From positions 1 through 54,416 of the forward strand of contig JAGVPT010000219.1 of NCBI GenBank assembly GCA_020052095.1: 54,416 nt of DNA, in the 5' to 3' direction. The translations under genes were made by a program, and so were the position numbers. The stretch comes from Bacteroidota bacterium. GTDB lineage: Bacteria; Bacteroidota; Ignavibacteria; UBA10030; UBA8401. The notes under the pieces are model-generated. The model did not search any database, was not told the origin of the DNA, and saw only the letters and a list, made by a program, of their open reading frames with translations. The first letter of the stretch is position 1. Each line of letters begins with the position of its first letter. Below, piece by piece: positions 10,607 to 44,437 of this stretch.

Positions 10607-10961
10607 GGAAAACCTCCTCGTTAGTGTTCCGAGTTATTGGGTGAATTATATAGAAAAAAAATTGATTTCTGAATTTGAGACACTATTTCGTATGTCATCA
10701 AAGGCGCAGAAAAAAAGTTGAAAAATTATTTGAAATTCGTGTGTGTGGAAAGGGGCAAAGATGAAGCAAAGGTTAAGCGAAATGGTAGTAACAAAATCTG
10801 CATGTGTCCTCCATACAATCTATAGAATTAGAGAGAAGAAGAATTCCTTCACGCTGTAGGCTTTTATTGTAAGAGAGCAGTTTAAGAGTAACGCTGTAGA
10901 GCTACCAGTGAGACGTGCAGCATGAACAATTGAATATGAATAATCCGAATTTAAAAAGCAA

Positions 10962-13343
10962 ATGAAAAATTTAATGTTAAATCTTCTCAGCAGCCTTGTT
11001 TCTTTTTCGATTAGCTTGTATATTTGCCTTAGGTGTTCGAATATCCCACTGTTCAGGCTGTTCTACGATGTTCAACTATTCATCCATCGACTAAAATTCT
11101 TGCTTCTCACGTACTTTCATAGAGCTTCCTGTCGTAGTATTGTCTTTATTTGCATCGGTATGATTGCAGTTTCGCATTGCGGGATGGGATTGCTCAACGC
11201 GCAGTCGCTCGGAAAAACAGCGGACGATGACGGAACGAAGTACACTACTATCGGCAACCTTGGCATGACAATTACAAATTACGGAACGCTCGGCACCGGA
11301 TTTCTGACGTGGCCCACGCAGCCGTCGTGTGAATACCCGCGCGGCTCGCGCATTGAGCATTTGTTTCTCGGCGGCATTTGGGTTGGCGGAATATTGCACA
11401 ACGAAGGCGTGCCTCATGTCTCAACAGCTGCTGTTGACATTGGTACGGTGAAACGTTTGGCCGAAGGTTTTGAGATGACAAATGAGGTCGGATCATCAAT
11501 CCTACAGCGGTCATCACTGCCGGGAGATAGATTTTTTGACACATCGGCTGTCAGTCATCAAGATTTTCTGATGGATTTTACCGACCGCTACACTCGCAAC
11601 CCGCTTTCGGGGGATTCAATTCCAAACCACCAGCCGCTTGGCGTCACCATTCATCTTGAAAGCTATGCGTGGAATTTTCCCTTTGCCGATTTCTTCGTCA
11701 TATTGAATTACACAATCAAAAATGCGAGTAAGGACGTGATTGACGGATTGTACGTCGGGTTGTGGAGCAATGGCGTCGTTCGTAATACAAATCTTACTGG
11801 AAATCCACGCGGACGGGATTTCTACAATCACTCCGCTAAAGGATATGTTGATAGCCTTCGGTTGGGCTACACGTTTGATTATGACGGACAGCCATACGGA
11901 CCGGCTGCAAACAGTTACTATGGCGCGAAGCTGTTAGGAGCTGTGCCGTTTCCATTAAAGCGTGATTCTCTTGGCAACTATTTACCCAACTCGCCGATTG
12001 ATTCCCTCACCGATTTGCACAAGGACACCTATTACAACGGTTGGAAGTTCAACAACAGGTCGGGGAACACAAAAGCATATTTCTTTCCCACCGACGACAA
12101 CAACCCTGGCGATCCTTTTCTTGGAAAATATCAGCGACTCTCGACCCCAATGCCGAAACCAAATATTGAAGCGCTCGGTACGCCGGCAAACAAAGTAGTC
12201 TCAGACGGAATTACTCCCGGCGAAGCTCCGGGAAGTATGACGGATTTGGTTTCCGTCGGTCCGTTTAAATCGTTGGCACCCGGCGACAGCGTGCAAGTTG
12301 TGTTTGCAATTGTCTGCGCAAAAAAATCCGGTACGGGGGCAGCAGCCGACGACTACAAAAATCAGGCGCTTCGTAAGACACTTTATTCAAATGCAGGCTG
12401 GGCACAGCAAGCCTACAACGGCGAAGACTTGAACGGCAACAACAGGCTTGACCCGGGTGAAGACATTAACGGTGACGGCAATCTCAATCGCTTTACCCTG
12501 CCGCAGCCGCCTCGTCAACCACGGGTGAGAACAGTTGTCGAAAATCAGAAGGTGACAATCTACTGGGACCGGGCGCAAGCGGAAGAAAGCTTTGACCCGA
12601 TAAGCCGGAAGTACGATTTTGAAGGATACAGAATTTATCGCTCCAATCCCGGCGCAGATGTTCAGAACCAAGCTAATTTTCTCTTCTCAATGCAGCTCAT
12701 CGGTGAATTTGATAAGAAGGACGGCATCGGTTATGATGAAGGACTTGACACGACGAATATCAAGTTGAAGACACCGATGAGATTTCCTGGAGACACGGTC
12801 GAATATTGGTACCGTTATCCGCCGGTGAATGACAACATCACCACACTGAACGGGTGGCAATATTTATACGGCGTCTCCGCGTTTGATACCGGCGACTCGG
12901 CAAACGGACTGTCGAGTTTGGAAAGCGCGAAAATAATTCGGCGAGTTGTTCCCGGCGTTCTTCCAACCTCGGATAAAAATATAGAGATTGGTGTGTATCC
13001 GAATCCGTATTATGCCGGCGCTGCATGGGACGGCGGAACCGAGCGGACGAGAAAAATTTATTTCTACAATTTACCGGCATTGGCTGACGTGAAAATTTAC
13101 ACGCTGTCCGGCGACCTTGTTGCGGAATTTCGACACGATGCCTCGACGTACAACGGTAGCGGAATAAAATGGTTCGATGATTTTTCCGGATTGCTGGCGT
13201 CGCCGCAGTTTGCCGGAGGTGAGCATGCGTGGGATTTGATCACGAAGTTTGACCAGGCAATCGCGACCGGTTTGTATTTGTTCACAGTGAAAGACATGGC
13301 AACCGGCGACGTGAAGCGCGGCAAATTTGTCATCGTGAAGTGA
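10962..13343 (+). CDS. Secreted protein of unknown function with an acidic Ca-binding-like repeat and a divergent FlgD-Ig/T9SS-like C-terminus (start codon uncertain)
   Basis: 793-aa ORF. The first ~65 aa look like an over-extension, and a signal-like segment IGMIAVSHCGMGLLNAQS follows. DLNGNNRLDPGEDINGDGNLN resembles thrombospondin-type-3/EF-like Ca sites. The C-terminus (VKIYTLSGDLVAEF ... GLYLFTVKDMATGDVKRGKFVIVK) mirrors the last strands of the canonical sorting domains elsewhere in this window. Confidence 0.6.
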   Translation: MKNLMLNLLSSLVSFSISLYICLRCSNIPLFRLFYDVQLFIHRLKFLLLTYFHRASCRSIVFICIGMIAVSHCGMGLLNAQSLGKTADDDGTKYTTIGNLGMTITNYGTLGTGFLTWPTQPSCEYPRGSRIEHLFLGGIWVGGILHNEGVPHVSTAAVDIGTVKRLAEGFEMTNEVGSSILQRSSLPGDRFFDTSAVSHQDFLMDFTDRYTRNPLSGDSIPNHQPLGVTIHLESYAWNFPFADFFVILNYTIKNASKDVIDGLYVGLWSNGVVRNTNLTGNPRGRDFYNHSAKGYVDSLRLGYTFDYDGQPYGPAANSYYGAKLLGAVPFPLKRDSLGNYLPNSPIDSLTDLHKDTYYNGWKFNNRSGNTKAYFFPTDDNNPGDPFLGKYQRLSTPMPKPNIEALGTPANKVVSDGITPGEAPGSMTDLVSVGPFKSLAPGDSVQVVFAIVCAKKSGTGAAADDYKNQALRKTLYSNAGWAQQAYNGEDLNGNNRLDPGEDINGDGNLNRFTLPQPPRQPRVRTVVENQKVTIYWDRAQAEESFDPISRKYDFEGYRIYRSNPGADVQNQANFLFSMQLIGEFDKKDGIGYDEGLDTTNIKLKTPMRFPGDTVEYWYRYPPVNDNITTLNGWQYLYGVSAFDTGDSANGLSSLESAKIIRRVVPGVLPTSDKNIEIGVYPNPYYAGAAWDGGTERTRKIYFYNLPALADVKIYTLSGDLVAEFRHDASTYNGSGIKWFDDFSGLLASPQFAGGEHAWDLITKFDQAIATGLYLFTVKDMATGDVKRGKFVIVK

Positions 13344-13367
13344 AAGAGTGTTTTTATCAAAAGTAAC

Positions 13368-13387
13368 AGCCCCGCTACAGCGGGGCT
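13368..13387 (+). terminator. Intercistronic GC hairpin (attenuator or stability element; no U-tract)
   Basis: AGCCCCGC (13368-13375), loop TACA, then GCGGGGCT (13380-13387). It lies between the 793-aa and 754-aa genes. Confidence 0.35.
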
Positions 13388-13420
13388 CAAGTTATAATCA
13401 AAAATTACAAGGAGGAAAAT

Positions 13421-15685
13421 ATGAGAAAGCTTTTAGTGTTGGTGTGTGTTGCGATGATTGGATTGGCGAACGCATTTGCGCAAACTTATCCCATCCGGAC
13501 GCTTGTAGATATTCAAAAAGTTCCGCTCGACTCGCTGAAGGTTGCCGATTCACTCGGCATAGGCGCGAACGCGCGCTGGACATTGCAAATATCTCCTTTA
13601 ATGAATGATACAGTGACTGTGGTTGTTCTTGTAACTGTTCCACCTCGATTGATTACGTACACCGCAGGCGGAAGAACACTTGCAGTTGTTGATACCGGTG
13701 TGCTCGGCACACAGCCGTGGAGCGGGATTCTTGTGAGACTTTCTTCTGATTCTGCAACTGCAGACGCGGATGGCTTTTTCAACATTGAGCGAGGCGATAT
13801 TGTGAAGATGACGGGACAAATTCAGGAATTCCCGTCACCAAACAGCATGAATAGTCTTACCCAATTTGCGCCAATTCCAGGAATACAATTTGAAATCCTT
13901 TCCTCCGGTAACAAACTTCCTCCTCCCACTCCGAAGACTCTCGCCGATTTCAATATTGGGCCCAATCCCAATGGCAAAGTGATGTTCTCAACTGGTGAGC
14001 CGTTTGAAGGTAAAGAGGTAGTTTTCACAAATTTGACCGTTGGTCCTGCAGTAAATACCTCGCGCGGTACGTTCACCGTGTCTGATGCCTTGGGAAACAC
14101 GATGTCCGATTACGATTGGTCGTTCCATTTTTCACTTGGTCATGGGGGCACCGAGCTTATCGCAGGTGATCCGAATTACAAAGTGCCACCCGCAGGGACA
14201 AAGATTGACACGATACGAGGTTACATTTCTACTTCATCCGGTGGTGAGTCTACAAGAGGTTACAGGATTTGTCCGCTTTTTGTCGGCGACATAGTGTTCG
14301 GGAAAGTGGCTCCGGGAATAACGACACATCGTCGTAATCCTGTTATTGTCTCAAAAGATAGTTCGCCAATCATATCAGCGAAAGCGTTCAAGCAAACATT
14401 CGGTGCTGCCGGAGGAAGTTTGGCAACGGTGAAATTAGTTTACAGCGTGAACAACGGCGCATGGCAGGAAATTGTGATGGCTGCGACGCAGGTGACCGTT
14501 GATTCTACATACAAAGGCACGATACCTGCTCAGGCGGCGGGTAATACAGTCCGCTATTTCGTCAAAGTAACAGACTCTACAAATCAGGTGACAATGCTTG
14601 CCAACAGTGGCTCGCTTACTCAGTATGACACTTCAAAAGGATTCTTCTTCTACAAGTCCTTGGATCGGTCGGCTCAAAAATTGTTGTCGATCCGGGATAT
14701 TCAATACACCCCTTATCTCAACGGACGAAGTCCGTATGTTGGCGGAATTGATTCAGTCGGTGGCATTGTTACGGCAGATACGGCAAGTTTGCGCCTATCT
14801 CCGATTAGTACCGGCTCTGCAGGAACGAACGCATTCTACATCCAGAGCACGAACGCGCCGTGGAGCGGCTTGTGGCTTTCGGATACGGGTTCCGTGTTGT
14901 TGAAGCTCGGATTGAAGAACGGCGACAGTATCGTGGTCGCTGGCACGGTGGCTGAGAATTTTGATGTCACTCGCCTTGAGCGCATCACGTCATCGCGAAT
15001 CGTCTCAAGAAATAATCCGCTGCCCACGCCTGTGAAAATGAATACAGACGTATTCGGGGTTGCTGCGGCAAACGGAAATCTCAATGCGGAGCCTTACGAA
15101 GGAATGCTGGCGCAATTTGATTCGGTAGTTCTCACAGCATTATCGCCAAATTTTGATCAGCCGACTGAGTACGAAGTGAACAATAGCTCAAGCCCGATAC
15201 TTGTTCGACGAGACGGAAGAAATACCTATACGAACGATACAACCGCTGGACTCATTCAACTCAAGCTTGATACCAAGATTAAGTCGTTGATGGGAATAAT
15301 ATATTACAATAACAGTCGGTACAAAGTTGTTCCTCGTACTAATGCCGACTTTGTCGGGGTGCCGCTTGGCGTGAAAGTCAATCGCGAAGACTTTTTGCCG
15401 AAGCAATTCGCGCTCGACCAGAATTATCCGAACCCGTTCAACCCGGCAACGACAATTCGCTTCAGCATTCCGACCGAAGCAAAGGTGACGCTGAAGATTT
15501 ATAACGTTCTTGGTCAGGAAGTTGCGACGTTGTTGGACAACAATCAGTCGGCGGGAACGTACAGTGTTCGGTTCGATGCGTCATCGCTTGCAAGCGGTAT
15601 GTACCTCTACCGCATTACCGCTCAACGAGTTGAGTTGTCAACCGGTCAGTTTGTGCAAGTGAAGAAGATGTTGTTGGTGAAATAA
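13421..15685 (+). CDS. Secreted protein of unknown function with a canonical T9SS C-terminal sorting domain
   Basis: 754-aa ORF with RBS AAGGAGG 7 nt upstream and signal peptide MRKLLVLVCVAMIGLANAFAQ. Two modules resemble the OB/beta-sandwich modules of ExeM/NucH-type surface proteins (GFFNIERGDIVKMTGQIQEF; NGDSIVVAGTVAENFDVTRLE). Sorting domain: NYPNPFNPATTIRF ... GMYLYRITAQ ... VQVKKMLLVK. Confidence 0.7.
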   Translation: MRKLLVLVCVAMIGLANAFAQTYPIRTLVDIQKVPLDSLKVADSLGIGANARWTLQISPLMNDTVTVVVLVTVPPRLITYTAGGRTLAVVDTGVLGTQPWSGILVRLSSDSATADADGFFNIERGDIVKMTGQIQEFPSPNSMNSLTQFAPIPGIQFEILSSGNKLPPPTPKTLADFNIGPNPNGKVMFSTGEPFEGKEVVFTNLTVGPAVNTSRGTFTVSDALGNTMSDYDWSFHFSLGHGGTELIAGDPNYKVPPAGTKIDTIRGYISTSSGGESTRGYRICPLFVGDIVFGKVAPGITTHRRNPVIVSKDSSPIISAKAFKQTFGAAGGSLATVKLVYSVNNGAWQEIVMAATQVTVDSTYKGTIPAQAAGNTVRYFVKVTDSTNQVTMLANSGSLTQYDTSKGFFFYKSLDRSAQKLLSIRDIQYTPYLNGRSPYVGGIDSVGGIVTADTASLRLSPISTGSAGTNAFYIQSTNAPWSGLWLSDTGSVLLKLGLKNGDSIVVAGTVAENFDVTRLERITSSRIVSRNNPLPTPVKMNTDVFGVAAANGNLNAEPYEGMLAQFDSVVLTALSPNFDQPTEYEVNNSSSPILVRRDGRNTYTNDTTAGLIQLKLDTKIKSLMGIIYYNNSRYKVVPRTNADFVGVPLGVKVNREDFLPKQFALDQNYPNPFNPATTIRFSIPTEAKVTLKIYNVLGQEVATLLDNNQSAGTYSVRFDASSLASGMYLYRITAQRVELSTGQFVQVKKMLLVK

Positions 15686-15695
15686 TTTTCTCAAT

Positions 15696-15728
15696 AACCC
15701 TTCAAGGTCTATAAGACCTTGAAGGGTT
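15696..15728 (+). terminator. Perfect 14-bp intercistronic hairpin (partial terminator or processing site)
   Basis: AACCCTTCAAGGTC (15696-15709), loop TATAA, then GACCTTGAAGGGTT (15715-15728), followed by CTTCGTTTCC. It sits 12 nt before the next start codon. Confidence 0.4.
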
Positions 15729-15740
15729 CTTCGTTTCCGA

Positions 15741-17510
15741 ATGAAAAAATCTTTCGTTCATATTGTTCTGCTCACGCTCGGCATTCTCTTCGGAAGTTGC
15801 TCAAAGCATTACCCCGACGAGCCAAAACCGAATGGACTTCCGACAACTCGATTGTGGGTCTCTTCCGATACGTCATCAACGCTGGGTGAGACGTTTTCTC
15901 GCCAGCATTTGTATTGGTATGGCGAAGACCCTGACGGTAGAGTTGCAGGCTACTTATTGGCGGTCGGTAACTACACGCCGGTGTTGAAGAGGCTGCCTTC
16001 GCCAGACATGTTGAGATACGTTTGGACGACAAAGACCGATTCAATTGTCGCGCTGCCGTTGCTGCAGAAACGGGATACCTTTACCGTTGTCATTCGCGCA
16101 GTTGATAATCATTTCGAGTCCGCTTCAATTCCCAATGGTACACAAATTCGTTTGTTTCCTCAGCCGTTTTGGGATAAAGATACGAACGGTGTGTTCAGCG
16201 GCAGCGATGTTTCGTTGCCAACGCTCTCTGGCGCTGTGGACCCCAAGGGCGCAATCCAGCCGTTCCCGATTCGCAACACACCGCCGAGAGTGCAGTTTGC
16301 GGCAAACCCTGTTGATTCTGCCACCATTGAAGAGCCAGAGACGACATATACCGTTGCGTCTTTTTCGTGGGTAGGAACTGATGACGACGGCAACAATACG
16401 ATTGTCTCGTATAGAATCGCGCTAAACGATACAACGACTCCAAATAGCTGGTTCACATTGAATGGAACAACGAATCTCATTACGCTCGCTGTGCCTCGTT
16501 CCGTAAGCGATGCAGCATCGGACACAGTGAGTGCAGATGTGTACACCGGTACTTTTCCAAGCTTGCAGTATAAAGGCAAAATTTCAGGTTTGCGGTTAGA
16601 TAAATTAAATGTCTTGTTTTTGCAAGCTAAAGATATTGCGGGTGAGTATAGTCTGGCGAGAACAATGCCATCAACTGCCAAAAAGTGGTATGTGAAAAAG
16701 CCGAAAAGCAGAATGTTGGGAGTTGTTGACTTTAGCGATCAACGGCTTGACAAAAATGACATCACCAAGTTTTATAGAAACGTTCTGTCGGATAATAGCA
16801 TTCTCGATGGACAATTAGGTTCGTTTGATGTACTCGATATCGGATATGGTCTGACTGATAATGAGAAAAAATTCCAAACTATCAACCAGAAGTACGGGAG
16901 CTATGTTCCGGGAGCTATGAATCCGGCATTCATCTTAACGCTGAAACTGTTTGATGTAGTGTTTTGGTTCAGTGATCTTTCTCCCAGCATCAAGCCGGCA
17001 CAAGTTGGGTTATTCAATTATACATTAGGGGGAGGCAAGGTTATTTTCAGCACAACATTTGCGTCGAGTCTTGTGTACGGTGATATTCGAGCGTTAAATG
17101 ATTTTGCTCCGCTTGACAGTATAACGAGTGATGCTGTATCAACAACCCAAGACTCCACGAATGCTGAAAGCAGAATTCCTGTTGGTACGTATGTTCAGCC
17201 GTTTAATCCCTCGGATGGATACCCCTCTCTCGCGTTTGATAGTTTGGATGTGAAGGGACAGCCTATGGCAGGACTTTATCACAATTTGACGATGCGGCGA
17301 GTATACAAACGTGCGGATTCCAAATATATTTATCAACTCGAGCCGGCAAAAGGCGGCGCCCGATACAAAGGGACACCCGACGTTGCTGTCATCGACAATG
17401 CAAAGCGGTTTGTGCTCATCGCGCTGCCGCTTCATTTGCTTAACGGCAAACAGCGGAACCTTTCTGCATTTTTCAGAAAAGTTATTGTGGATGAATTTGG
17501 CATTAGGTAA
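15741..17510 (+). CDS. Probable surface lipoprotein of unknown function
   Basis: 589-aa ORF with a lipobox-like signal (MKKSFVHIVLLTLGILFGSC). Two repeats have the pattern W-x-G-x-D-x-D-G (LYWYGEDPDGRVAGY; FSWVGTDDDGNNTIVSY), typical of Ig/FN3-like modules. I recognised no catalytic motif. Confidence 0.6.
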   Translation: MKKSFVHIVLLTLGILFGSCSKHYPDEPKPNGLPTTRLWVSSDTSSTLGETFSRQHLYWYGEDPDGRVAGYLLAVGNYTPVLKRLPSPDMLRYVWTTKTDSIVALPLLQKRDTFTVVIRAVDNHFESASIPNGTQIRLFPQPFWDKDTNGVFSGSDVSLPTLSGAVDPKGAIQPFPIRNTPPRVQFAANPVDSATIEEPETTYTVASFSWVGTDDDGNNTIVSYRIALNDTTTPNSWFTLNGTTNLITLAVPRSVSDAASDTVSADVYTGTFPSLQYKGKISGLRLDKLNVLFLQAKDIAGEYSLARTMPSTAKKWYVKKPKSRMLGVVDFSDQRLDKNDITKFYRNVLSDNSILDGQLGSFDVLDIGYGLTDNEKKFQTINQKYGSYVPGAMNPAFILTLKLFDVVFWFSDLSPSIKPAQVGLFNYTLGGGKVIFSTTFASSLVYGDIRALNDFAPLDSITSDAVSTTQDSTNAESRIPVGTYVQPFNPSDGYPSLAFDSLDVKGQPMAGLYHNLTMRRVYKRADSKYIYQLEPAKGGARYKGTPDVAVIDNAKRFVLIALPLHLLNGKQRNLSAFFRKVIVDEFGIR

Positions 17511-20364
17511 GATTACAAAATTACAAGATTGCAAGATTCTGCGAGATATTGTTCTCTGTGTCTCTGTGGGTGTATTTCTTTTTTCACATGTTGCACGCGC
17601 ACAAAACACCGGTACAATCAAAGGTCGCGTCATTGATGAGAAGACGAATGAAGGTCTGCCGAGCGTCAACATCGTCATCAAAGGAACGTACTACGGCGCG
17701 GCGACTGACTTCGACGGCAACTATAAAATTGAGAAAATAAATCCTGGCACGTACAATATTGATGTTACACTACTGGGCTACAAAGCTGTTCAGTACACTG
17801 CGATAAAAGTCGAAGCCGGACAGACCGTTGAGCTTGACGTGAAAATGGCCGAGTCGGTTCTCTCGCTCGGCACCGAAGTCGTCATCGTCGGAGAGAAGCC
17901 GCTGTTCGACATTGAAGAAACGTCGAGCAAACATTCGATGAGGAGCGAAGACATTGCGGTCACTGCCGTGCGCGAAGTGAAAGACATTGTGGGATTGCAG
18001 ACCGGTGTTGTGCAGAGCGACAACGAAATCCATATTCGCGGAAGTCGAGGCTATGAAAACGCATATCTGGTGGATGGCATTTCGGTGCAGGACGTTCTCG
18101 GCGGAACCGGCTTCGGCTTACAGTTGAGCACTGAGGCAATTCAGGAAATGGAAGTCATCACCGGCGGTTACAATGCGGAGTACGGACAGGCAACGTCCGG
18201 CGTAGTGAACATCACGACGAAGGAAGGCGCGGACAAGTACAGCGGCGCTGTTTCATACAAGACGGATAAATTTTTTGGGGCTAAGTCGCGCGCGAATTTC
18301 AACACCGACATTACTGAAGCAAGCCTGAGCGGACCATTTCCGTTGGCGAATCTTGTCGTGCCGGGCACTCTCAGCTTCTTCGGAAATTTTTCTATGAACT
18401 TGACGGACGGATTCACGCGCTGGTCGGAAAAAATACGAAACGGAAAACCTGCCGGATATGAAAAGAGAGCGCCCAATCAATTGGTTTCATCTATCTTCAA
18501 CGGAAAAGATTTTGCGTTCAGGTTGGCGAACAGTTACGCATGGTCAACAAAACTTACGTGGAAGCCTTCTGCCACGGAAAAGTTGAGCTACTCGTACAAT
18601 CAATCTGTTGAAATAGACCAAAACACTGCGAGCGTGAAGACAACGCTCGAGCGCGAAGAGCCTCAGCCCGGCTATCAGTACGAGTTCAAAAACATTCTCG
18701 ACAGCGCCAACACCTTCACGAAAATCTACATCACGCATACGCTGGCATGGACTCAGACTCTCAGCCCGAAATCGTTTTATGAATTTCGCCTGAGCAGGTA
18801 CACCGCGCACGTTCGCGGCGATGCGAACGGCAAAGACTATACGGGTTACAGCGAACCGAGGGATATTGTGACATTTCCGATTCAGTATTACAACCGAGAC
18901 AGGGACACCGTGGGAATTATTCCCGGCGACGGATTTTATGATACCGGAAGTCCGTCCATCTGGCGCGACCACTACATTAACGAGTACACGCTGAAGTTCG
19001 ATTTCACAAATCATTTCACTGAGAAGAACAAGTTTAAGTCCGGCGTTGAGGCAAAGTTCCAAAACTTCCAGATGATTGACATCAATCAGCCGTGGATTAA
19101 GCCGCGCGGATTGAACAACGACATCTACCAAGTCAGCCCGGCGTCCGGCGCGCTGTATGCGCAAGACAATATTTTCATCAGCGGCATGGTGTTGAACTTC
19201 GGCTTGCGTTTCGATTACTGGTTCCCGGGAAAATTTGTTGATGACGCAATCAACAATCCGAATATCCAGCTTGCGTCGGACGACATTCGCCAAAAATACA
19301 ATGACCAAACGCTTACGCTCTTCGGTCGGCGATGGAAAGGACGGTTGAGTCCGCGCCTCGGTATCTCGCATCCTGTTTCCGACAACCAGACGTTGATTTT
19401 CTCGTACGGACATTTCTCGAAGCTGCCGCGCCCGACGTACGTCTATTCAAAGTTGACGGAGAGCAGCGCGCGTTCTTCAATCCAAACAATCGGCAATCCG
19501 AATCTAAATCCTGAAACAACCGTTCAGTACGAACTCGGCTTGCGCAATCAGATCACCGAAAACGACGTGTTGACAGTAACGGCGTACTACAAAGACATTT
19601 TTGATTACATCACCGCCCGCACCATCCGTGCAAAGAGTGTTCGCTTCTCCAGTGGGTCATACACGATGTATGTGAACGGCGACTACGCGCGCAATAGAGG
19701 TTTCGAGGTTGAGTACAGCAAACGCATCGGCAGAGTGTTTCGCGGAACCCTTTCCGGTTCGTATTCCATTTCTACCGGCAAGAGCTCTTCTGCAACGGAA
19801 GCGTTGTTCAATGTTGCGACAGCAGGAAGAGAAGCTTCGATAAAAGAGAGCTATGTTTCGTGGGACAGACCATTCCAGGCGTCGCTCAGCACGAACTTCA
19901 CCGTGCGGAAGAACGAGCCGCTGTTCGATTTTGCACCGGGGATTTTGGATGACTACAATCTCTACATTCGCTTCTTCTTCCAATCCGGCAAGCGCTATAC
20001 GGGCCAAATTTATACCGGCGTTACTGCGGAAGGTCGCCCCGAGTACACGTCCGATGTTGACCATCAATTGGAAGAAGTCGGTGAGAATTGGTTCTACATA
20101 AATTTCAATTTTGAAAAATACATTGACGCTGGCTTTGGAAAGTTTACCGTAAGCCTTGAAGTCCAAAATCTGTTGAACAACAAGAACTCGCAGGTAATCA
20201 ATCCTGTCACCGGACGAGCGTACGAATACGGCGATGATACCCCGCTGTCGTACAACGATCCGCGCTTTCCGCAGTTGCAGGGAATTATTCAGCCGTTTCC
20301 GTACAACCCGGCTCGTTATCTCAGTCCGCGCACAGCGAAGTTAGGAATCGCGTTCAGGTTCTAA
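17491..20364 (+). CDS. TonB-dependent outer-membrane receptor, SusC-like architecture (CarboxypepD_reg-like N-domain, plug, beta-barrel)
   Basis: I place the start at ATG 17491 (MNLALGKITK ... VARAQ signal); the track ORF from 17311 overlaps the upstream gene. N-domain: TIKGRVIDEKTNEGLPSVNIVIKGTYYGAATDFDGNYKI. Plug and barrel motifs are present, and the C-terminal aromatic residue (GIAFRF) is typical of outer-membrane barrels. Confidence 0.85.
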   Translation: MNLALGKITKLQDCKILRDIVLCVSVGVFLFSHVARAQNTGTIKGRVIDEKTNEGLPSVNIVIKGTYYGAATDFDGNYKIEKINPGTYNIDVTLLGYKAVQYTAIKVEAGQTVELDVKMAESVLSLGTEVVIVGEKPLFDIEETSSKHSMRSEDIAVTAVREVKDIVGLQTGVVQSDNEIHIRGSRGYENAYLVDGISVQDVLGGTGFGLQLSTEAIQEMEVITGGYNAEYGQATSGVVNITTKEGADKYSGAVSYKTDKFFGAKSRANFNTDITEASLSGPFPLANLVVPGTLSFFGNFSMNLTDGFTRWSEKIRNGKPAGYEKRAPNQLVSSIFNGKDFAFRLANSYAWSTKLTWKPSATEKLSYSYNQSVEIDQNTASVKTTLEREEPQPGYQYEFKNILDSANTFTKIYITHTLAWTQTLSPKSFYEFRLSRYTAHVRGDANGKDYTGYSEPRDIVTFPIQYYNRDRDTVGIIPGDGFYDTGSPSIWRDHYINEYTLKFDFTNHFTEKNKFKSGVEAKFQNFQMIDINQPWIKPRGLNNDIYQVSPASGALYAQDNIFISGMVLNFGLRFDYWFPGKFVDDAINNPNIQLASDDIRQKYNDQTLTLFGRRWKGRLSPRLGISHPVSDNQTLIFSYGHFSKLPRPTYVYSKLTESSARSSIQTIGNPNLNPETTVQYELGLRNQITENDVLTVTAYYKDIFDYITARTIRAKSVRFSSGSYTMYVNGDYARNRGFEVEYSKRIGRVFRGTLSGSYSISTGKSSSATEALFNVATAGREASIKESYVSWDRPFQASLSTNFTVRKNEPLFDFAPGILDDYNLYIRFFFQSGKRYTGQIYTGVTAEGRPEYTSDVDHQLEEVGENWFYINFNFEKYIDAGFGKFTVSLEVQNLLNNKNSQVINPVTGRAYEYGDDTPLSYNDPRFPQLQGIIQPFPYNPARYLSPRTAKLGIAFRF

Positions 20365-20367
20365 TTC

Positions 20368-20522
20368 AATGAGCAATGAACAATGAGCAATCAACAATTG
20401 AGGATTAACAATAAGAATAAGAATTTGTTGACGCGAGTTACAAATCGTAGCAGTCTGCGGAGAACTGTTCATTGTTCATTGCTCATTGTTATGTGTTCAT
20501 TATTCATTGTTCAATGTTCATT
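20368..20522. repeat. Inverted arrays of a heptanucleotide tandem repeat (AATGARC x5 and GTTCATT x8)
   Basis: Left array 20368-20402: AATGAGC AATGAAC AATGAGC AATCAAC AATTGAG. Right array 20467-20522: GTTCATT GTTCATT GCTCATT GTTATGT GTTCATT ATTCATT GTTCAAT GTTCATT. The units are reverse complements of each other, and a 19-nt perfect complementary stretch exists between the arms. Confidence 0.9.
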
Positions 20523-21543
20523 GTCTCAACTGGTGCCGAACCTTGGCGGACAGCGTTCCGGAATTTCAGCGTATCAATTTTTGAAGATTGGCGTGGATGC
20601 CCGCGGCTCTAGTATGGGCGAAGCGTACGTCGCCGTTGTTAATGATGTGTCGTCGTTGTACTGGAATCCCGCCGCCTTGGTCAATTACAACGGTGGTCGC
20701 GCTGTTGTAACGTCAACGATGGACGATCACGCCTCGACAAGTGAGTTCGCTATCGTCTCAGGTCAGACAATGGCGTCGCATACCCAATGGCTGGTGGATT
20801 TGCAGCACGAATTCTTCGGCGTGAGCTATTATCTTTCCTCCAGCGATGCTCTCGGTTTTGCAGTTACATTGCTTCATACCGACGATATGAAAGTGACGAC
20901 CGAAACCCAGCCGACGGGAGACGGAACGTACTTCTCGTACCAAGACATGGCAGTTGCCGCAACGTACTCACGAAAGATGACGGACCAGTTCAGTTTTGGC
21001 GCGACCATTCGCTACGTCCGCGAGACAATTGATGTGCTGCACATGGACGGAGTGTTGGTTGACCTCGGAACATTCTATTACATGGGACTCGGTTCGTCGC
21101 GCTTCGCAGTTGTTGTTTCAAATTTTGGCGCGAACGTTCAGCCGACCGGCACGGTGAAACGAAGCGACGGCTCCACGGTGAATAGCTTCCAGTCATTTTC
21201 GCCCCCGACAATGTTCAAATTAGGATACGCGCTTGAGCCGTGGCAAGATGAACACAATCGGCTGACGACCTCCGTCCAACTGAATCATCCAAATGACAAC
21301 GCGGAAAACGTTCGTCTCGGCGCAGAGTATGAATACGACAAAACGTTCTTCCTTCGCGTTGGTGTGAAGCGGACAATCGGAGAATCGTTCCTCGGCAAAG
21401 CGTCGTCAACGGCAGAAGATTATACATTCGGCGCCGGCGTGTTCGTTCCGCTCGGCATCATCAAAGCTTCGTTCGATTATGCGTTTGCCAATTTCAATGA
21501 CCTGGGTTCGGTGCATCGCATTACTGTTATGATAACGTACTGA
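20383..21543 (+). CDS. PorV/PorQ-family (FadL-fold-like) outer-membrane protein; start codon uncertain (alternative in-frame ATG at 20491)
   Basis: 386-aa ORF. FLKIGVDARGSSMGEAYVAVVNDVSSLYWNPAAL matches the conserved N-terminal PorV signature as I recall it (FL.I..D.R...MG.A.VA...D..S.YWNP). It has an alternating beta-strand pattern and a C-terminal aromatic residue (VMITY). Confidence 0.7.
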   Translation: MSNQQLRINNKNKNLLTRVTNRSSLRRTVHCSLLIVMCSLFIVQCSLSQLVPNLGGQRSGISAYQFLKIGVDARGSSMGEAYVAVVNDVSSLYWNPAALVNYNGGRAVVTSTMDDHASTSEFAIVSGQTMASHTQWLVDLQHEFFGVSYYLSSSDALGFAVTLLHTDDMKVTTETQPTGDGTYFSYQDMAVAATYSRKMTDQFSFGATIRYVRETIDVLHMDGVLVDLGTFYYMGLGSSRFAVVVSNFGANVQPTGTVKRSDGSTVNSFQSFSPPTMFKLGYALEPWQDEHNRLTTSVQLNHPNDNAENVRLGAEYEYDKTFFLRVGVKRTIGESFLGKASSTAEDYTFGAGVFVPLGIIKASFDYAFANFNDLGSVHRITVMITY

Positions 21544-21548
21544 ACAGC

Positions 21549-22646
21549 ATGAAACATTTTTTCTCCTTTATAGTAATTATGATTTTAGTTTCCGCGGGAT
21601 GTCAATTGCCGTACGACCCGAACAGATTACCGCCGGCAACCGATATTCCGACGGCAACTGATACATCGTACGTTCCAAAAGGAGAATGGGGGGGATTCAT
21701 TAAGCCGGTGGCAATCATCTACGGTCGCGATCAATTGTTCTATGTCGCCGATTATCTTGGCAATCGCATCGTCATCTTGAATCAAGCCGGACAAGAGTTA
21801 AGCAGGTTGGAAAATATCGTTCATCCTGCATCTATCGGACAAGATACACGCCTCGATTTAATTGTCGGCGCAGAAACACGCGAGCCGACAACCGGCGACA
21901 CAATTGGTGTTATCTTAAGAATAAAACTCGTGAACGCCTCGCACCTTCTCGATCAGGCTGAAATCGATACGATATGGAAGGAGCCGGCTCGTCCGCTGCG
22001 GCGCTTCGTCGGCATTGGTATTATTCCGAACGATGAGTATCTCGTCGTGCGCGACGGTCCGGACAACAGCAGCATCGTTGACCCCGATGCTCGCGTGCTG
22101 CGTTTCCGTTATGTGCACGTGAATGCAACGGCGCGGAAGGATTCGTTCATCACGTCGTTGGGAGATTTGCAATCGGGCGTTGGCGGTTCGATAGCAAACA
22201 TCAACCGCCCGACCGGCATTGCGACGTTTCCGGGCAGAGCAGATTTTATTTTGATTCAGCGAGCAGAAGGAATTCAGTACTCAGCAATCTGGATGGTGTA
22301 CTCGAAAACGTTCGATTTCGAAGGTTGGCTGCCAAAGTACGATCCGTCGCAGCCGGACCAGCGCAGCATTGATTTCGTTCGACCCAACCGATTTATCGAG
22401 CCGCGCGGTGTTGCAATAGACCGTCTTCGTTCTGATATTTTTATTGTCGATGCGTCTCAGGATAGCGTTGTCAAGTTTAACAGCCGCGGTGTGTTCAAGG
22501 GAGAGTCGTTTGGGAGAAAGAATTCGGTTGGAGGCGACCTCGACAATCCTCGCAGCGTGGCGATTGCAGAAAAAACTTTGTATGTGTGCGATTCGGATTC
22601 CCTTCGCGGACGCATTGTGTTATACAGACTTTCCACGGATTTCTGA
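21549..22646 (+). CDS. NHL-repeat beta-propeller lipoprotein
   Basis: 365-aa ORF with lipobox VSAGC. NHL-like repeats: LFYVADYLGNRIVILN, IFIVDASQDSVVKFN, LYVCDSDSLRGRIVLYRL. It starts 5 nt after the PorV-like stop. Confidence 0.65.
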   Translation: MKHFFSFIVIMILVSAGCQLPYDPNRLPPATDIPTATDTSYVPKGEWGGFIKPVAIIYGRDQLFYVADYLGNRIVILNQAGQELSRLENIVHPASIGQDTRLDLIVGAETREPTTGDTIGVILRIKLVNASHLLDQAEIDTIWKEPARPLRRFVGIGIIPNDEYLVVRDGPDNSSIVDPDARVLRFRYVHVNATARKDSFITSLGDLQSGVGGSIANINRPTGIATFPGRADFILIQRAEGIQYSAIWMVYSKTFDFEGWLPKYDPSQPDQRSIDFVRPNRFIEPRGVAIDRLRSDIFIVDASQDSVVKFNSRGVFKGESFGRKNSVGGDLDNPRSVAIAEKTLYVCDSDSLRGRIVLYRLSTDF

Positions 22647-22663: not shown

Positions 22664-23275
22664 TCATTTCTTCTTTTCGTAATTATACCGCCCTAATTCA
22701 AACAAATCATTTGCCCTGCTGTAGAAGTTCCCGCCCATTCTCGCAATCGGTCTGAGTTTCGCTTGGTCGATCGCCCCATTCGAGTACACTTCATCCTTCA
22801 CATGGAATTGGACAACCTCACCGATAATGAGGTCAGTCGGATCAGTACCTATCTCAAGATGTTTGTACAGGACGCACTCGCAGTTCACTTTGGATGTTTC
22901 GATGCGCGGCGTCCGGACTACGGTGCTTGCGACAAGGGTGAGTTTTGCCTGCTCGATTTCAGACATCCCCTCCGGAAAATCGGCCGAAGAGATATTCATT
23001 GAATGAACCAATTCGTCGGTCACGAGATTCACGACGAACTCCTTTTGGCGCAAAATATTTTCCGCCGTGTGTTTCATTTGGCCTTTTTTCCTTCCCACAG
23101 AGATCATGATCAGCGGGGGAGAGCCGGTAAGTGCATTGAAGAAACTGTACGGCGCAGCGTTGACGACGTTCCTATCATTCATCGACGTGACGAAGGCGAT
23201 GGGACGGGGGACGACGGCGCCCACCAAAAGGTTGTACGCATCGCGCGGAGAGAGTGTTCTTGGATCAATAGTCAT
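22664..23275 (-). CDS. Flavin reductase-like (FMN-binding split-barrel) protein
   Basis: 203-aa ORF. N-terminus LSPRDAYNLLVGAVVPRPIAFVTSMNDRNVVNAAPYSFFNA is the typical Flavin_Reduct domain pattern. It overlaps the upstream ABC ATPase gene by 11 nt. Confidence 0.75.
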   Translation of the reverse strand: MTIDPRTLSPRDAYNLLVGAVVPRPIAFVTSMNDRNVVNAAPYSFFNALTGSPPLIMISVGRKKGQMKHTAENILRQKEFVVNLVTDELVHSMNISSADFPEGMSEIEQAKLTLVASTVVRTPRIETSKVNCECVLYKHLEIGTDPTDLIIGEVVQFHVKDEVYSNGAIDQAKLRPIARMGGNFYSRANDLFELGRYNYEKKK

Positions 23276-24095
23276 TTGCTTTTTCCTTCAGAAATGGAAC
23301 AAAATCGCGCACAGTCGTTGCCACGGGGCGCTGACCGAAAAGCCGAGAAAGTCTCGACGATACCGGCAACTGAGCCTTTGCGTTCTTCATCGCCGCAGAT
23401 GCATCTGGCCGGATAAGGAAATGCGAAAGAGAACCATCGACCACACAACGCCCATCGCGGAGAATCAGAATTCGGTCACAGTGCTGAAATCCATATGCTG
23501 CGTCGTGGGTGACGAGGATGTAACCCTTGCCTCTCTTGCGGAGGAGGCTGAGCGCTTTCGCAAAGATGTTCTTCTCCGGCATGCTCAATCCGACGGTGGG
23601 CTCATCAAAGACTAAAAAAGGCGTGTCCATGGCAACGGCAGATGCGAGAGTAATTAACTTGCGCTGCGCAGCATGGAGGTCGTACGGATGTCGTTCGGCA
23701 TATTCCGACAAAGAAAACATTTCCATCGCATCCGCAACAAGATAATCGGCGTTGACTTTGGCGAGATTGGTCGGGCCGAAGGAAATCTCTTTACGGACCG
23801 TCGGCGAGAAGATTTGGTGTTCCGCCGATTGAAGAGAGACTGCAATATCTCCCGCCAATTCATGGAGCGCTCTTCCCTTCGTGATCTTCCCGGCGACATG
23901 AATTTTCCCTTGCTGGGGCGACAGCAGTCCGAGCAGCAGTTTCAGCAACGTAGATTTGCCTGCGCCATTCGCACCTGTCAGGACGGTTGTCGACGATTGA
24001 CCGAATTGCACACTAATATTCTGCAGAACGGGAGCAGCGGATCCGTAGTGAAACGTGACATCGCTTATGCTGATGTACGGCACTTCTTCATCCAT
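23265..24095 (-). CDS. ECF/cobalt-type ABC transporter ATP-binding protein (second ATPase)
   Basis: 276-aa ORF with Walker A GANGAGKST and Walker B LVFDEPT. Confidence 0.8.
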   Translation of the reverse strand: MDEEVPYISISDVTFHYGSAAPVLQNISVQFGQSSTTVLTGANGAGKSTLLKLLLGLLSPQQGKIHVAGKITKGRALHELAGDIAVSLQSAEHQIFSPTVRKEISFGPTNLAKVNADYLVADAMEMFSLSEYAERHPYDLHAAQRKLITLASAVAMDTPFLVFDEPTVGLSMPEKNIFAKALSLLRKRGKGYILVTHDAAYGFQHCDRILILRDGRCVVDGSLSHFLIRPDASAAMKNAKAQLPVSSRLSRLFGQRPVATTVRDFVPFLKEKANDY

Positions 24096-24877
24096 TCAAT
24101 AGTCTCTTTGAACAATAATGAAATGTGGTTCCGCCCGAGCGACCGCTGGACATCAATCAATTCCGGCAACGTGAGCGAGGATACGTCTATGTTGGAATTT
24201 AACAAATCGTGCGGCGTTCCAAGAAATTGCTGGCGACCGTTTTCCAGGAAGAGGACATGGTTACAGAGCTCAAACGTAGCGCTCATATTTTGTTCTATGA
24301 AAATGATTGTCGACGAACGTTTCGCGACGCGCAGAAAATCTATCAGATGTCGAACATGGTCTGCGTCGAGCGCCTGCGTCGGCTCGTCAAGAATGAACAA
24401 GCGAGGATGCTTCGCGGCTTCGCTCGCGATTGCGAGCATTTGGGTCTCACCCCCTGAAAGAGTTTTGGGATGACGATACCGGAGCCCGATGAGGTGAAAC
24501 GTTGAGAGCTGTTCTTCGATCCGCTCTCTCATGATATCACGTGGCACTCCGAACTGCTCCAACGAAAATGCGATTTCTTCCTCAACAGTTTCAGTAACTC
24601 CCGAAAGCTGCAACGATGCATCCTGAAACACGAAGCCGATTTCGGAAGTGCCAGGCGCCTGATCTTGAGCATCAAAAATCACCGTACCGGTCAGGCTCCC
24701 GCCCCGGAAATGTTTTTGGAGCAAACCGGCGAGGGCGTACGCAAAGGTGGTTTTACCCGCTTGCGAAGGTCCTATCACCCCCAAGGCCTGGCCATCCTGC
24801 AGATGAAGTGAGATGTGTTCGAAGCTGTTGCGCGCTTCTTGCTTATATCGAAATGAAAGGTCTTTGATTGTAATCAT
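24065..24877 (-). CDS. ECF/cobalt-type ABC transporter ATP-binding protein (first ATPase)
   Basis: 270-aa ORF with Walker A GPSQAGKTT, signature LSGGETQ and Walker B LFILDEPT. Confidence 0.8.
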   Translation of the reverse strand: MITIKDLSFRYKQEARNSFEHISLHLQDGQALGVIGPSQAGKTTFAYALAGLLQKHFRGGSLTGTVIFDAQDQAPGTSEIGFVFQDASLQLSGVTETVEEEIAFSLEQFGVPRDIMRERIEEQLSTFHLIGLRYRHPKTLSGGETQMLAIASEAAKHPRLFILDEPTQALDADHVRHLIDFLRVAKRSSTIIFIEQNMSATFELCNHVLFLENGRQQFLGTPHDLLNSNIDVSSLTLPELIDVQRSLGRNHISLLFKETIEWMKKCRTSA

Positions 24878-25557
24878 GGGAGGATAAAGCTCGCAACAAT
24901 GAGACCGAGGGACGAAAGGAGCAGGATCGCAATCGACAATTTGTCGAAAGGAGAGAGGGTAAGCGTGCGAAGGTAAATTTTTTCCGCCGGTGACTCAATG
25001 CCTTTAAATTCGAACGCCAGGCTTCGGTCGAGACCCTGTGAGATGGCAATAAGCATTACGGGGAGCAAAAGCGGGAAGATATTTTTCCATTTGTTGCCCA
25101 GGGATCGATTAGCATTATATCCCCGAAGTTGCTGGCCGATATACACCGCCTGAAACACATCGCGCAGGCTTTGAATAATCTCGAAAGAGAATATGAAGAG
25201 ATAATGAAGCCGGGACGGTATGGGAACTGTTCGCAGTCCCAGGCGAAAATCGGTTGGAGATCCCCCAAGGAGAACGATCACCAGCGGCGTAATGAGAAGA
25301 ACGAACCTGAGAGCGTATGCGAGTCCACGGGAGAATGGTGCGCCGAAGGCGGAATTTACGAGGAAAAGTAGAATTCCGATGGGCAGAATGTATAATGCAA
25401 TTTTCTTCCAGGCCTGTTTTCGCTTCCGGATCGATGAGGCTGCTGAAAGCAGAATCATCACCCCAACCATCTGCGTCGTCGGCGCGCCGAAAAGAGCGAT
25501 GACGAAAAAGAAGAGGATGAAGCACAATGATGTCAAAGGATGAAGTGTGCGATGCAC
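24874..25557 (-). CDS. ECF transporter transmembrane (T) component, CbiQ/EcfT family
   Basis: 227-aa polytopic membrane ORF. It shares a 4-nt overlap with the ATPase gene, and its position and size are typical of EcfT. Confidence 0.65.
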   Translation of the reverse strand: MHRTLHPLTSLCFILFFFVIALFGAPTTQMVGVMILLSAASSIRKRKQAWKKIALYILPIGILLFLVNSAFGAPFSRGLAYALRFVLLITPLVIVLLGGSPTDFRLGLRTVPIPSRLHYLFIFSFEIIQSLRDVFQAVYIGQQLRGYNANRSLGNKWKNIFPLLLPVMLIAISQGLDRSLAFEFKGIESPAEKIYLRTLTLSPFDKLSIAILLLSSLGLIVASFILP

Positions 25558-25560
25558 GAT

Positions 25561-26157: not shown

Positions 26158-26380
26158 GGCTGAACATAAGATAAAAAAAAGATACGAGATTAAAAGAAGT
26201 ACTTTATATATATTCACATACGCAACCGCATCCACATGTCCCGCACACACGCGATGGCTTTCTCTACTCAGCACTATTAGCTGGCTTCACAACTCACCAC
26301 ATTCTTCATCCTTGAATACGCCTACGTATGAGAACGGAATATACATACTACGACGTCCCGCACATTAACTCCGGCAAGAC

Positions 26381-44432: not shown

Positions 44433-44437
44433 CTTCC

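Follow-up and report, generated by a model that had tools for sequence, protein, structure and literature searches.

We analysed a 54,416-nucleotide (nt) contig from a Bacteroidota bacterium of the class Ignavibacteria (JAGVPT010000219.1, assembly GCA_020052095.1; the whole stretch is called the window below), in which six plus-strand genes, here named g1 to g6, lie one behind the other (Table 1). Three of them encode a TonB-dependent transporter (g4), a protein with a distinct kind of C-terminal domain (g1) and an outer-membrane barrel of the PorV/PorQ family (g5), and these three recur together as a unit beyond this cluster. A check of the open reading frames (ORFs) returned the six genes where a first-pass annotation, made from the sequence alone, had placed them, with spacings of +77, +55, -20 (an overlap), +18 and +5 nt.

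The first gene probably begins further downstream than originally assigned. Position 10962 does open the longest ORF for g1, as the first pass had it. Homology to relatives begins only near residue 67-83 of that ORF, and the database gene call (727 amino acids) starts at ATG 11160, so the true start is probably either that codon or the in-frame TTG 11100, which would give g1 a better signal peptide. Upstream of g1 no riboswitch or other Rfam family was found, and sigma-70-like matches in the presumed promoter region (10607-11159) were no commoner than in shuffled sequence. The hairpins between genes lack a good U-tract, as had been noted, and both of them, including the longer one between g2 and g3, may be attenuators or RNA-stabilising elements that tune expression levels within the operon.

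The cluster appears to be free of enzymes. Pfam and NCBIfam searches matched no SusD-family or catalytic domain in any of g1 to g6, in agreement with the earlier statement that SusD and catalytic motifs are absent, and there were no carbohydrate-active enzymes (CAZymes) and no regulator in 10962-22646 or in the conserved flanks.

Table 1. Coordinates of the cluster genes and their features in the window, with the range of identity between each window protein and its counterparts in related loci. T9SS, type IX secretion system; aa, amino acids.
Feature	Position	Strand	Description or basis	Identity in related loci
Upstream non-coding region	10607..11159	+	presumed promoter of the cluster	
g1	11160..13343	+	X-tail protein, 727 aa from ATG 11160	44-75%
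g1 N-terminal beta-supersandwich	about 11226-12420	+	AlphaFold2 model, fold search	
g1 Asp/Asn/Gly-rich loop	12426-12494	+	DLNGNNRLDPGEDINGDGNLNRF	
g1 Fn3-like 'LPQPP' domain	12498 to about 12960	+		
g1 X-type C-terminal domain	12993-13340	+	at the extreme C-terminus	
Hairpin, g1/g2 gap	13368..13387	+	GC-rich, 8 bp, without U-tract	
g2	13421..15685	+	T9SS type-A cargo protein, 754 aa	26-59%
g2 type-A C-terminal domain	starts near 15422	+	PF18962, TIGR04183	
Hairpin, g2/g3 gap	15696..15728	+	perfect, 15 bp, with weak T-rich tail	
g3	15741..17510	+	lipoprotein, 589 aa	25-64%
g4	17491..20364	+	TonB-dependent transporter, 957 aa; 20-nt overlap with g3	48-75%
g4 CarboxypepD_reg N-terminal extension	about 17614-17883	+	Pfam	
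g4 TonB-box-like motif EVVIVGEKP	17875-17901	+	orthologue conservation	
g5	20383..21543	+	PorV/PorQ-family (FadL-like) outer-membrane barrel, 386 aa	45-77%
g6	21549..22646	+	NHL beta-propeller lipoprotein, 365 aa	27-67%

The transporter, the barrel and the X-type domain

By its domain content, g4 is a genuine TonB-dependent transporter that falls outside the SusC family. Its plug (PF07715) scored 39.9 bits against a cut-off of 23.9 and its barrel (TonB_dep_Rec, PF00593) 78.8 bits against 27. Between the N-terminal extension and the plug lies the motif EVVI(V/I)GEKPLFD, which is conserved in 60-90% of 58 orthologues; its first part, EVVI(V/I)GEKP, resembles the TonB boxes of Bacteroidota and is called TonB-box-like here. 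g4 is the most conserved protein of the cluster (mean column conservation 0.68), and within it conservation is highest in the N-terminal extension, the TonB-box-like motif and the plug. The first-pass annotation was right to describe a TonB receptor with a CarboxypepD_reg N-terminal domain; its further label, SusC-type, did not hold, as the SusC model (TIGR04056) gave 80.3 bits against a cut-off of 368.25 and matched residues 42-259 only. A search of the PDB with g4 returned no SusC chain at E<=1e-3. Because g4 lies outside the SusC family, the absence of SusD is not anomalous in itself.

The barrel g5 belongs to the PorV/PorQ family and falls short of each of its named members. It scored 198 bits on the family model NF033709 (cut-off 90), and the PorV signature that had been recognised by eye is present at 20578-20670 (PF19572, residues 61-99, 36.4 bits against 27). 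On the narrower models it reached 82.8 bits of the 250 needed for PorV (NF033710), 72.6 of 220 for PorQ (NF033711) and 64.4 of 325 for PorV2 (NF052325). Similarity to the solved Flavobacterium johnsoniae PorV (6h3i_F) was detectable at E=1.1e-5, and a weak Toluene_X/FadL match (E=3.6e-6) stayed below its cut-off. We also considered BamG and rejected it, finding no match to NF053685 at E<=0.1 and no BamG chain in a PDB sequence search.

The g5 family is large, and its members share this generic character. An exhaustive search gave 5,600 representatives at 50% clustering, all closer to g5 than to F. johnsoniae PorV. Ten relatives that we checked all matched the generic model NF033709, and none reached the cut-offs for PorV, PorQ or PorV2; for several, the PorQ model gave a better score than the PorV model, and some database sources name such relatives 'long-subunit fatty acid transport protein'. 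The window protein has an N-terminal extension of about 32 residues (1-32) and an insertion of about 22 residues (about 104-126), both absent from most orthologues, and its true start codon may lie further downstream.

The C-terminal domain of g1 is related to the type-A tails of type IX secretion system (T9SS) cargo and forms a class separate from them, which we call X-type. The first-pass annotation had assigned T9SS-type tails to the first two products, one canonical (g2) and one divergent (g1), and profile searches agree. The g1 tail is indeed divergent; what had been missed is that it represents a conserved class of its own, which is the decisive feature of the locus. The domain is among the best-conserved parts of g1 and has the motif VYPNPY..W...F.NLP...I.IYTL.GD.V...H...GGEHAWDL.T....GLYLF.V...G..GKF.I[VI]K. 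It differs from type A by insertions and by motifs of its own (a W after PNPY, NLP, a conserved His, WDL.T and the terminal GKF.I[VI]K). On the type-A model TIGR04183 (cut-off 23 bits) g1 scored 13 bits as a whole protein (E=0.075) and 20.5 bits as an isolated domain. Profile-profile comparison (hhalign) with type-A tails gave a probability of 87% (E=3.9e-6) over the first 39 columns.

The two classes were cleanly separated. We scanned 109 sequences, the window and 108 other loci, with profile hidden Markov models (HMMs) of both; the X-type model matched 107 ORFs and the type-A model 118, and the number of ORFs scoring on both was zero. Exactly one X-type ORF was found in 107 of the 109 sequences.

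The only named proteins matched by the X-type domain were PorU and PorZ, each through its C-terminus. The sole PDB match of the X-type profile was the C-terminal domain of PorU (6za2_A, residues 1083-1141, E=0.0022), with a common WDL(T/S) motif. Among eight X-type members searched against NCBIfam, six matched the PorZ C-terminus (best E=2.4e-7), four the PorU C-terminus and six the generic type-A model; g1 itself matched the PorZ C-terminus at E=0.0019.

The rest of g1 resembles no named protein. It matched no Pfam family, and although it has more than 1,665 database relatives, none of the best 120 listed is functionally named. An AlphaFold2 model (mean predicted local distance difference test, pLDDT, 79.8) consists of an N-terminal supersandwich, a long helix, the Asp/Asn/Gly-rich loop, an Fn3-like domain and a C-terminal beta-sandwich. 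It lacks the two beta-propellers of PorZ, and on the PorZ model (NF052228) g1 scored 16.7 bits against a cut-off of 260, through its C-terminus only. The best fold matches of the N-terminal domain were the non-catalytic N-terminal supersandwich domains of GH94 phosphorylases and GH116 glucosidases (TM about 0.22). The model has no alpha/alpha catalytic barrel, and we rejected g1 as an enzyme of these kinds; the many invariant polar residues of the domain would leave room for an unrecognised activity. The Asp/Asn/Gly-rich loop is a possible calcium-binding candidate.

The remaining cluster proteins are a T9SS cargo protein and two lipoproteins. PDB sequence searches with g1, g2 and g3 returned nothing useful, and Pfam searches with sub-segments of these three gave weak CBM56 and Ig-like matches only. 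g2 has a canonical type-A tail (PF18962, 45.1 bits against 27, E=1.3e-11; TIGR04183, 41.5 against 23), and its residues 448-569 resemble the N-terminal region of ExeM/NucH (E=3.8e-7); it gave a weak CBM56 match, and its orthologues gave faint OB-fold matches. The lipoboxes that had been proposed for the third and sixth products are present. That of g3 ends in LFGS-C20 (codon at 15798), with C20 invariant in 38 sequences, and that of g6 in VSAG-C18 (codon at 21600), with 'GC' the majority residues in orthologues. g3 matched no Pfam or NCBIfam family. In its AlphaFold2 model (pLDDT 87.3) three Fn3/Ig-like domains precede a C-terminal alpha/beta domain whose fold is like that of class-I glutamine amidotransferases, but the conserved Cys/His triad is absent and we rejected g3 as an enzyme. 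g6 matched solved NHL domains in three stretches (phmmer, E=2.9e-10) and has NHL repeats; on the Pfam NHL model it scored 18.2 against a cut-off of 20, and its orthologue in locus L072 reached E=7e-8. Because their folds are only of binding types (supersandwich, Fn3, OB- or CBM-like, NHL propeller), g1, g2, g3 and g6 look like binding or scaffold proteins.

Conservation of the cluster and recurrence of the trio

The six-gene cluster is conserved in gene order. A search of species-representative genomes with g3 gave 22 loci (L001-L022), and a search with an alignment of g1 found at least 578 genomes with a g1 relative; the best 80 loci of the latter search were labelled as Ignavibacteria-type metagenome-assembled genomes (MAGs) or carried vague or evidently mislabelled names. 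With tblastn, the same six genes were found in the same order in every locus that was long enough (L001-L022 and L023-L101), g2 being variable. Even the divergent locus L021, in which g3 is 28% identical to the window protein, keeps the order. Two Zixibacteria-type contigs (L104 and L108) also have the cluster, with identities of 36% for g1, 41% for g4, 38% for g5 and 26% for g3. The first-pass annotation had proposed an operon-like cluster and staked it on synteny in related genomes; that synteny is present, in Zixibacteria as well.

The genes around the cluster are housekeeping genes and are not conserved with it. They include 2-oxoacid dehydrogenase and lipoyl synthase genes in L072 and tRNA-modification and carboxyltransferase genes in L102, and no second copy of any cluster gene was found in the fetched flanks. 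One clade has a gene for an SLT-LysM lytic transglycosylase 136-534 nt upstream of g1 on the same strand (33 of 74 loci); this neighbour is absent in a more distant clade. In the window the SLT-LysM gene lies at 1470-3962, and two large minus-strand genes for T9SS type-A cargo (4089-7694 and 7808-10606), one of them with Cohesin and DUF5689 domains, stand between it and g1. Because SLT-LysM lies directly upstream of g1 in those 33 of 74 related loci, the two cargo genes look like a lineage-specific insertion.

Not all six genes are held equally fast. g2 is a fast-evolving, variable and dispensable member; it was not detected in L045, L047, L051 and L054. L045 has an enlarged g3-like gene (870 amino acids) and an extra gene after g6, and in L066, L068 and L089 the distance from g2 to g3 is greater by about 5 kb, a stretch that in L066 holds a second g2 paralogue of 1,043 amino acids. 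g6 is kept in the Ignavibacteria-type loci and in the Zixibacteria-like L108, and was not called in L104.

The transporter, the X-type domain and the barrel also occur together without the other cluster genes. The neighbourhoods of distant g5 relatives (L105, L106 and L107) contain a TonB transporter with CarboxypepD_reg and plug domains, a protein of 900-1,100 amino acids of unknown family and a barrel, in that order, and the unknown-family proteins end in an X-type domain like that of g1; we call such proteins X-tail proteins and each set of three genes a triad. We fetched 80 further loci around relatives of one distant barrel (P0499). They were labelled Calditrichota, Marinimicrobia/Neomarinimicrobiota, KSB1, Zhuqueibacterota, Stahlbacteria, WOR-3, Kryptoniota and Ignavibacteriales/Melioribacteraceae (including Melioribacter roseus), and the trio reaches at least eight phylum-level lineages.

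The coupling of the X-type domain to a barrel and a TonB transporter is near-obligate. An X-type ORF lay directly upstream of the barrel for 63 of the 64 barrels with enough upstream sequence, the single exception being an artefact of overlapping ORFs, and a CarboxypepD_reg TonB transporter lay directly upstream of the X-type ORF in 53 of 54 cases. In a non-circular test, an HMM trained solely on the g1 orthologues that belong to six-gene clusters recovered all X-type ORFs of the 80 loci (87/87) and none of the type-A ORFs (0/87). The same HMM matched the Fn3-like 'LPQPP' domain, which the triad X-tail proteins have in common with g1. With both this domain and the X-type tail shared, g1 falls into one protein family with them, as a short member.

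The triad proteins have the same classification as their counterparts in the window. Their transporters are not of the SusC family (that of L186 scored 59 bits, likewise below 368), their X-tail proteins match no named family and their barrels are generic members of the PorV/PorQ family. The lipoproteins g3 and g6 are outside this widely conserved core, g6 being absent from triad loci. The NHL propeller lipoprotein that the first-pass annotation placed after the receptor is therefore real as a propeller, but it is not part of what is widely conserved. Between g2 and the type-A cargo genes that adjoin triads we found no homology beyond the C-terminal domain.

Triads vary in their details. The N-terminal parts of the X-tail family are highly variable; one member (L169:1577-6409) has 1,611 amino acids and 'two-component regulator propeller' (Reg_prop) repeats. 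In L162 two X-tail proteins follow one another. In L147-L149, L152, L157, L158, L160 and L162-L165, mostly labelled Marinimicrobia, there is a gap of about 1.3 kb between the X-tail gene and the barrel gene, presumably holding an extra gene.

Barrels of this family, and whole triads, are often present in several copies. Two or three tandem triads were found in L136, L139, L143, L145, L146, L168 and L182. The assembly CAYHRX01 has part of the six-gene cluster, namely g1 and the beginning of g2 (L034, 5.2 kb), plus a separate triad (L153), the MAG clean1178 has two triads (L166 and L177), and RSWS12 has four on three contigs (L125, L143 with two, and L180). The gene g5 is therefore no lone canonical porV but one of several paralogues, as had been suspected from the start. 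Paralogous barrels in Ignavibacteria, and CAYHRX01 with cluster genes and a separate triad, led us to reject g5 as the sole PorV-family gene. To judge from profile scores and copy number, g5 is a generic member of the PorV/PorQ family and belongs to a group of several paralogues in its lineage; the canonical shuttle PorV of these genomes was not located.

Some triads are in loci for carbohydrate use. In a Calditrichaceae MAG (L107/L110) the triad lies between LacI and T9SS cargo genes on one side and genes for a sugar ATP-binding cassette (ABC) importer, GH130, a laminin-G T9SS cargo protein and GH2 on the other. In a Melioribacteraceae locus (L175) its flanking genes encode a CBM9 protein and a GH16-malectin protein, both secreted by the T9SS. 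Such surroundings are those of a utilisation locus, with the triad in the place of SusC/SusD.

A proposed uptake complex and its alternatives

We propose, with a probability of about 0.6, that the cluster encodes an outer-membrane uptake complex in which a TonB transporter works with a partner that is delivered by the T9SS and anchored on a barrel, functionally parallel to SusC/SusD. The transporter g4 would be the centre of the complex, and its main extracellular partner would be g1 rather than a lipoprotein. g1 would be exported by the T9SS, would keep its unusual C-terminal domain uncleaved and would dock through it on the dedicated g5 barrel, in the manner of PorZ on PorQ and PorU on PorV. 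The g1-g5 pair would be placed next to g4 or above it and would act jointly with g2, g3 and g6 to capture a ligand at the surface, which would be handed to g4 and imported with energy from TonB. g6 is an accessory component, possibly a lid or a binding protein.

The docking step is modelled on known surface proteins. PorU and PorZ retain their C-terminal domain uncleaved on the surface. There they stay bound to PorV and PorQ (PMC10947112, PMC12704123). By analogy, we propose that the X-type domain is a retained docking domain for the g5 barrel and that g5 is the anchor for it. Retention of the domain, docking on g5, a capture or lid role and import are steps that we infer. The first-pass annotation had suggested a capture/uptake or cargo-anchoring module, and a conserved trio with a barrel-coupled X-type domain fits that suggestion.

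The trio as a whole is best explained as a modular unit that is reused, including in glycan-utilisation loci, in phyla of the Fibrobacteres-Chlorobi-Bacteroidetes (FCB) type with few or no SusC/SusD pairs. A broader claim, which we hold tentatively and at a little under even odds, is that the trio is a previously unrecognised, multi-phylum counterpart of SusC/SusD, in which the X-tail protein would be tethered non-covalently to its own barrel by a retained domain of a third class, and that PorF, PorZ and PorQ would be specialised descendants of an ancestral trio.

Several points weigh against an uptake complex. The physical contacts among g1, g4 and g5 are predictions from sequence, and conserved adjacency can reflect co-regulation rather than a complex. 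Retention of the domain is deduced from similarity to PorU and PorZ (E from 1e-3 to 1e-7) and from its high conservation. The window cluster has no enzyme, regulator or inner-membrane transporter, so a role in nutrition is transferred to it from the paralogous triads. Its gene order also differs from that of the triads: g1 leads, and g2 and g3 stand between it and the g4-g5 pair. For g3 and g6, exposure at the surface is at most predicted, and the export signals of these lipoproteins are weak. Finally, that the cluster is widely conserved in housekeeping surroundings would also be in keeping with a structural role or one related to secretion.

That last point leads to the strongest alternative, which we nevertheless consider unlikely: that the cluster is a housekeeping part of the T9SS, equivalent in Ignavibacteria to its late-stage attachment components, with g4, g1 and g5 as counterparts of PorF, PorZ and PorQ, and serves to handle a surface glycolipid or glycan for cargo attachment rather than to import nutrients. 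It is a possible reading because the cluster is widely conserved (across Ignavibacteria-type genomes and Zixibacteria, with no second copy within the fetched flanks), lies among housekeeping genes and is free of enzymes, the flanks having neither enzymes nor regulators. PorF (PG0534) is TonB-receptor-like and needed for normal T9SS output, and the authors who described it suggest that it imports glycan for the biogenesis or linkage of anionic lipopolysaccharide (A-LPS); the phenotype of its mutant is like those of porQ and porZ mutants (PMC5445135, PMC12704123). The X-type domain matches the PorZ C-terminus best, and the higher PorQ than PorV scores of several g5 relatives point the same way. 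Membership of PorZ and PorQ themselves is not supported, however, because g1 lacks the body of PorZ, with a supersandwich where PorZ has two propellers, and g5 is far below the PorQ cut-off (73 bits against 220). Homologous triads, moreover, are multi-copy and occur in glycan-utilisation contexts. Common ancestry of PorF, PorZ and PorQ with the triads is an attractive possibility.

We give little credence to the idea that g5 is a FadL-type hydrophobic channel, or a general PorV shuttle, that happens to lie beside an ordinary TonB transporter, so that the surface proteins are co-located and form no specific complex. The weak Toluene_X/FadL match of g5, the fatty-acid-transport names of some relatives and the predicted status of the protein contacts are consistent with it. 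Against it, the PorV-type N-terminal motif is conserved, the barrel is strictly coupled to an X-type domain and a TonB transporter throughout at least eight lineages of phylum level, and several genomes have paralogous barrels, each with its own X-tail protein, which a single general shuttle would not need. Equally improbable is a cluster for surface adhesion or structural assembly of the cell envelope, with binding proteins on barrels and g4 as a platform without transport: the four non-barrel proteins do have only binding or scaffold folds and SLT-LysM does adjoin g1 in one clade (33 of 74 loci), but the conservation of the TonB-box-like motif, plug and extension of g4 argues for an energised transporter, paralogous triads adjoin glycoside hydrolases and sugar ABC importers, and SLT-LysM is absent in the distant clade and split from g1 by an insertion in the window.

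The substrate of the proposed uptake complex was considered from its neighbours. Downstream of the cluster the minus strand of the window (22664-26274) has genes for a flavin reductase and a module of the energy-coupling factor (ECF) type (two ABC ATPases and CbiQ). Downstream of the cluster in L104 and L108 are B12-binding and pterin-binding genes, with an S-methyltransferase gene in L108 only, and the Zixibacteria have methionine-synthase-like genes. These downstream cofactor genes are hints of a link to a cofactor, and no riboswitch was found. Vitamin B12, suggested as a substrate by the nearby ECF/CbiQ genes and the B12 genes of Zixibacteria, was dropped as unsupported.

Other genes of the window were also noted. 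An IS200-like Y1 transposase gene (40173-40613) lies just upstream of a GH38 alpha-mannosidase gene (40954-44187) and a tRNA-Asp gene (44358-44433). The minus strand encodes a Rieske [2Fe-2S] domain fused to an FMN-reductase domain (117-1217), two tandem PAP2 phosphatase paralogues (26774-28725), a LonB/LonC-like protease (30782-33229) and a Fic/DOC-family protein with a Fic_N domain (47991-49136).

Relation to known systems and significance

The arrangement resembles several known systems and matches none of them. The first-pass annotation had not recognised it as a described one, and full-text searches of the literature, with most subscription journals outside their scope, turned up no account of a TonB transporter, a PorV-like barrel and a C-terminal-domain protein as such a trio.

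The closest functional parallel is SusC/SusD (RagA/RagB). In both, a TonB transporter with a CarboxypepD-like N-terminal extension adjoins one or more genes for extracellular partners, and triads, like SusC/SusD utilisomes, are modular, multi-copy and sometimes tandem, and are found beside glycoside hydrolases, CBM proteins, regulators and inner-membrane sugar transporters. The trio differs in that its transporters score 59-80 bits on a SusC model with a cut-off of 368 and SusD is absent; the partner has about 700-1,600 amino acids, belongs to no known family, is apparently exported by the T9SS and comes with a PorV/PorQ-family barrel gene. The window copy, unlike a SusC/SusD polysaccharide-utilisation locus, also lacks CAZymes and a regulator.

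The trio also recalls the PorQ-PorZ and PorV-PorU pairs of Porphyromonas gingivalis, in which a PorV/PorQ-family barrel is paired with a surface protein that has the PorZ- or PorU-like kind of tail (PMC10947112), with PorF as a TonB-receptor-like protein in the same T9SS functional set (PMC5445135, PMC12704123). However, g1 and g5 fall below the equivalog models, and g1 has neither the propellers of PorZ nor the peptidase domain of PorU. The trio genes are adjacent and multi-copy, and paralogous units are in nutrient-utilisation loci.

Dedicated anchoring has a precedent in cargo with a type-B C-terminal domain, which is held at the surface by an adjacently encoded PorP/SprF-like barrel (PMC9143113). 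There, too, cargo whose C-terminal domain is of a special class is tied genetically to an adjacent barrel of its own. The barrel of the trio, however, is of the PorV/PorQ family (NF033709) and not PorP/SprF, the X-type domain is closer to type A and to PorU and PorZ, and a TonB transporter is an obligatory third partner. A second precedent, for the barrel alone, is BamG, a 14-strand FadL-type barrel that serves as a docking pillar for the surface lipoprotein BamH and is conserved across FCB phyla (PMC12611786, PMC12578637). As proposed for g5, the role of the barrel there is to hold an extracellular protein and not to transport; g5 has no BamG match, and its partners and genomic context are unrelated to BamA.

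Transporters outside the SusC family can also have lids of their own. BtuG, for example, is a beta-propeller. In Bacteroides, non-SusC TonB transporters have adjacent, conserved non-SusD lipoprotein lids, namely BtuG, XusB, HmuY and six uncharacterised families (bioRxiv 10.1101/2023.03.17.533168). g3 and g6, the latter an NHL propeller, could by analogy be lids of the transporter. Those lids are lipoproteins, whereas the partner universally coupled to the transporter here is an X-tail protein with a T9SS-type tail and a barrel as its proposed anchor. The trio joins two known kinds of system, a TonB transporter with a surface partner and a T9SS cargo with a dedicated barrel anchor, over a wide phylogenetic reach.

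SusC/SusD pairs define glycan uptake in Bacteroidota and are the marker by which utilisation loci are predicted. In Ignavibacteriales gene clusters susCD genes are scarce, and in Kapabacteria they are absent (PMC10576277); nonetheless Ignavibacteriales, Kapabacteria, Calditrichota and Marinimicrobia encode many T9SS-secreted hydrolases. If the proposed uptake complex is correct, the trio would be a second marker for substrate-uptake loci in abundant, poorly cultured phyla, the X-type domain would be a third kind of T9SS C-terminal domain, with a cognate barrel, and the trio would link secretion and import physically. For PorF, PorQ and PorZ the trio also points to an origin and a role that can be tested. 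The model is directly testable in Melioribacter roseus, a cultured organism with a triad (L186). If the trio is indeed a multi-phylum counterpart of SusC/SusD, it would explain how oligomers are imported in SusD-poor FCB lineages, among them Ignavibacteria, Calditrichota, Marinimicrobia, Zixibacteria and KSB1.

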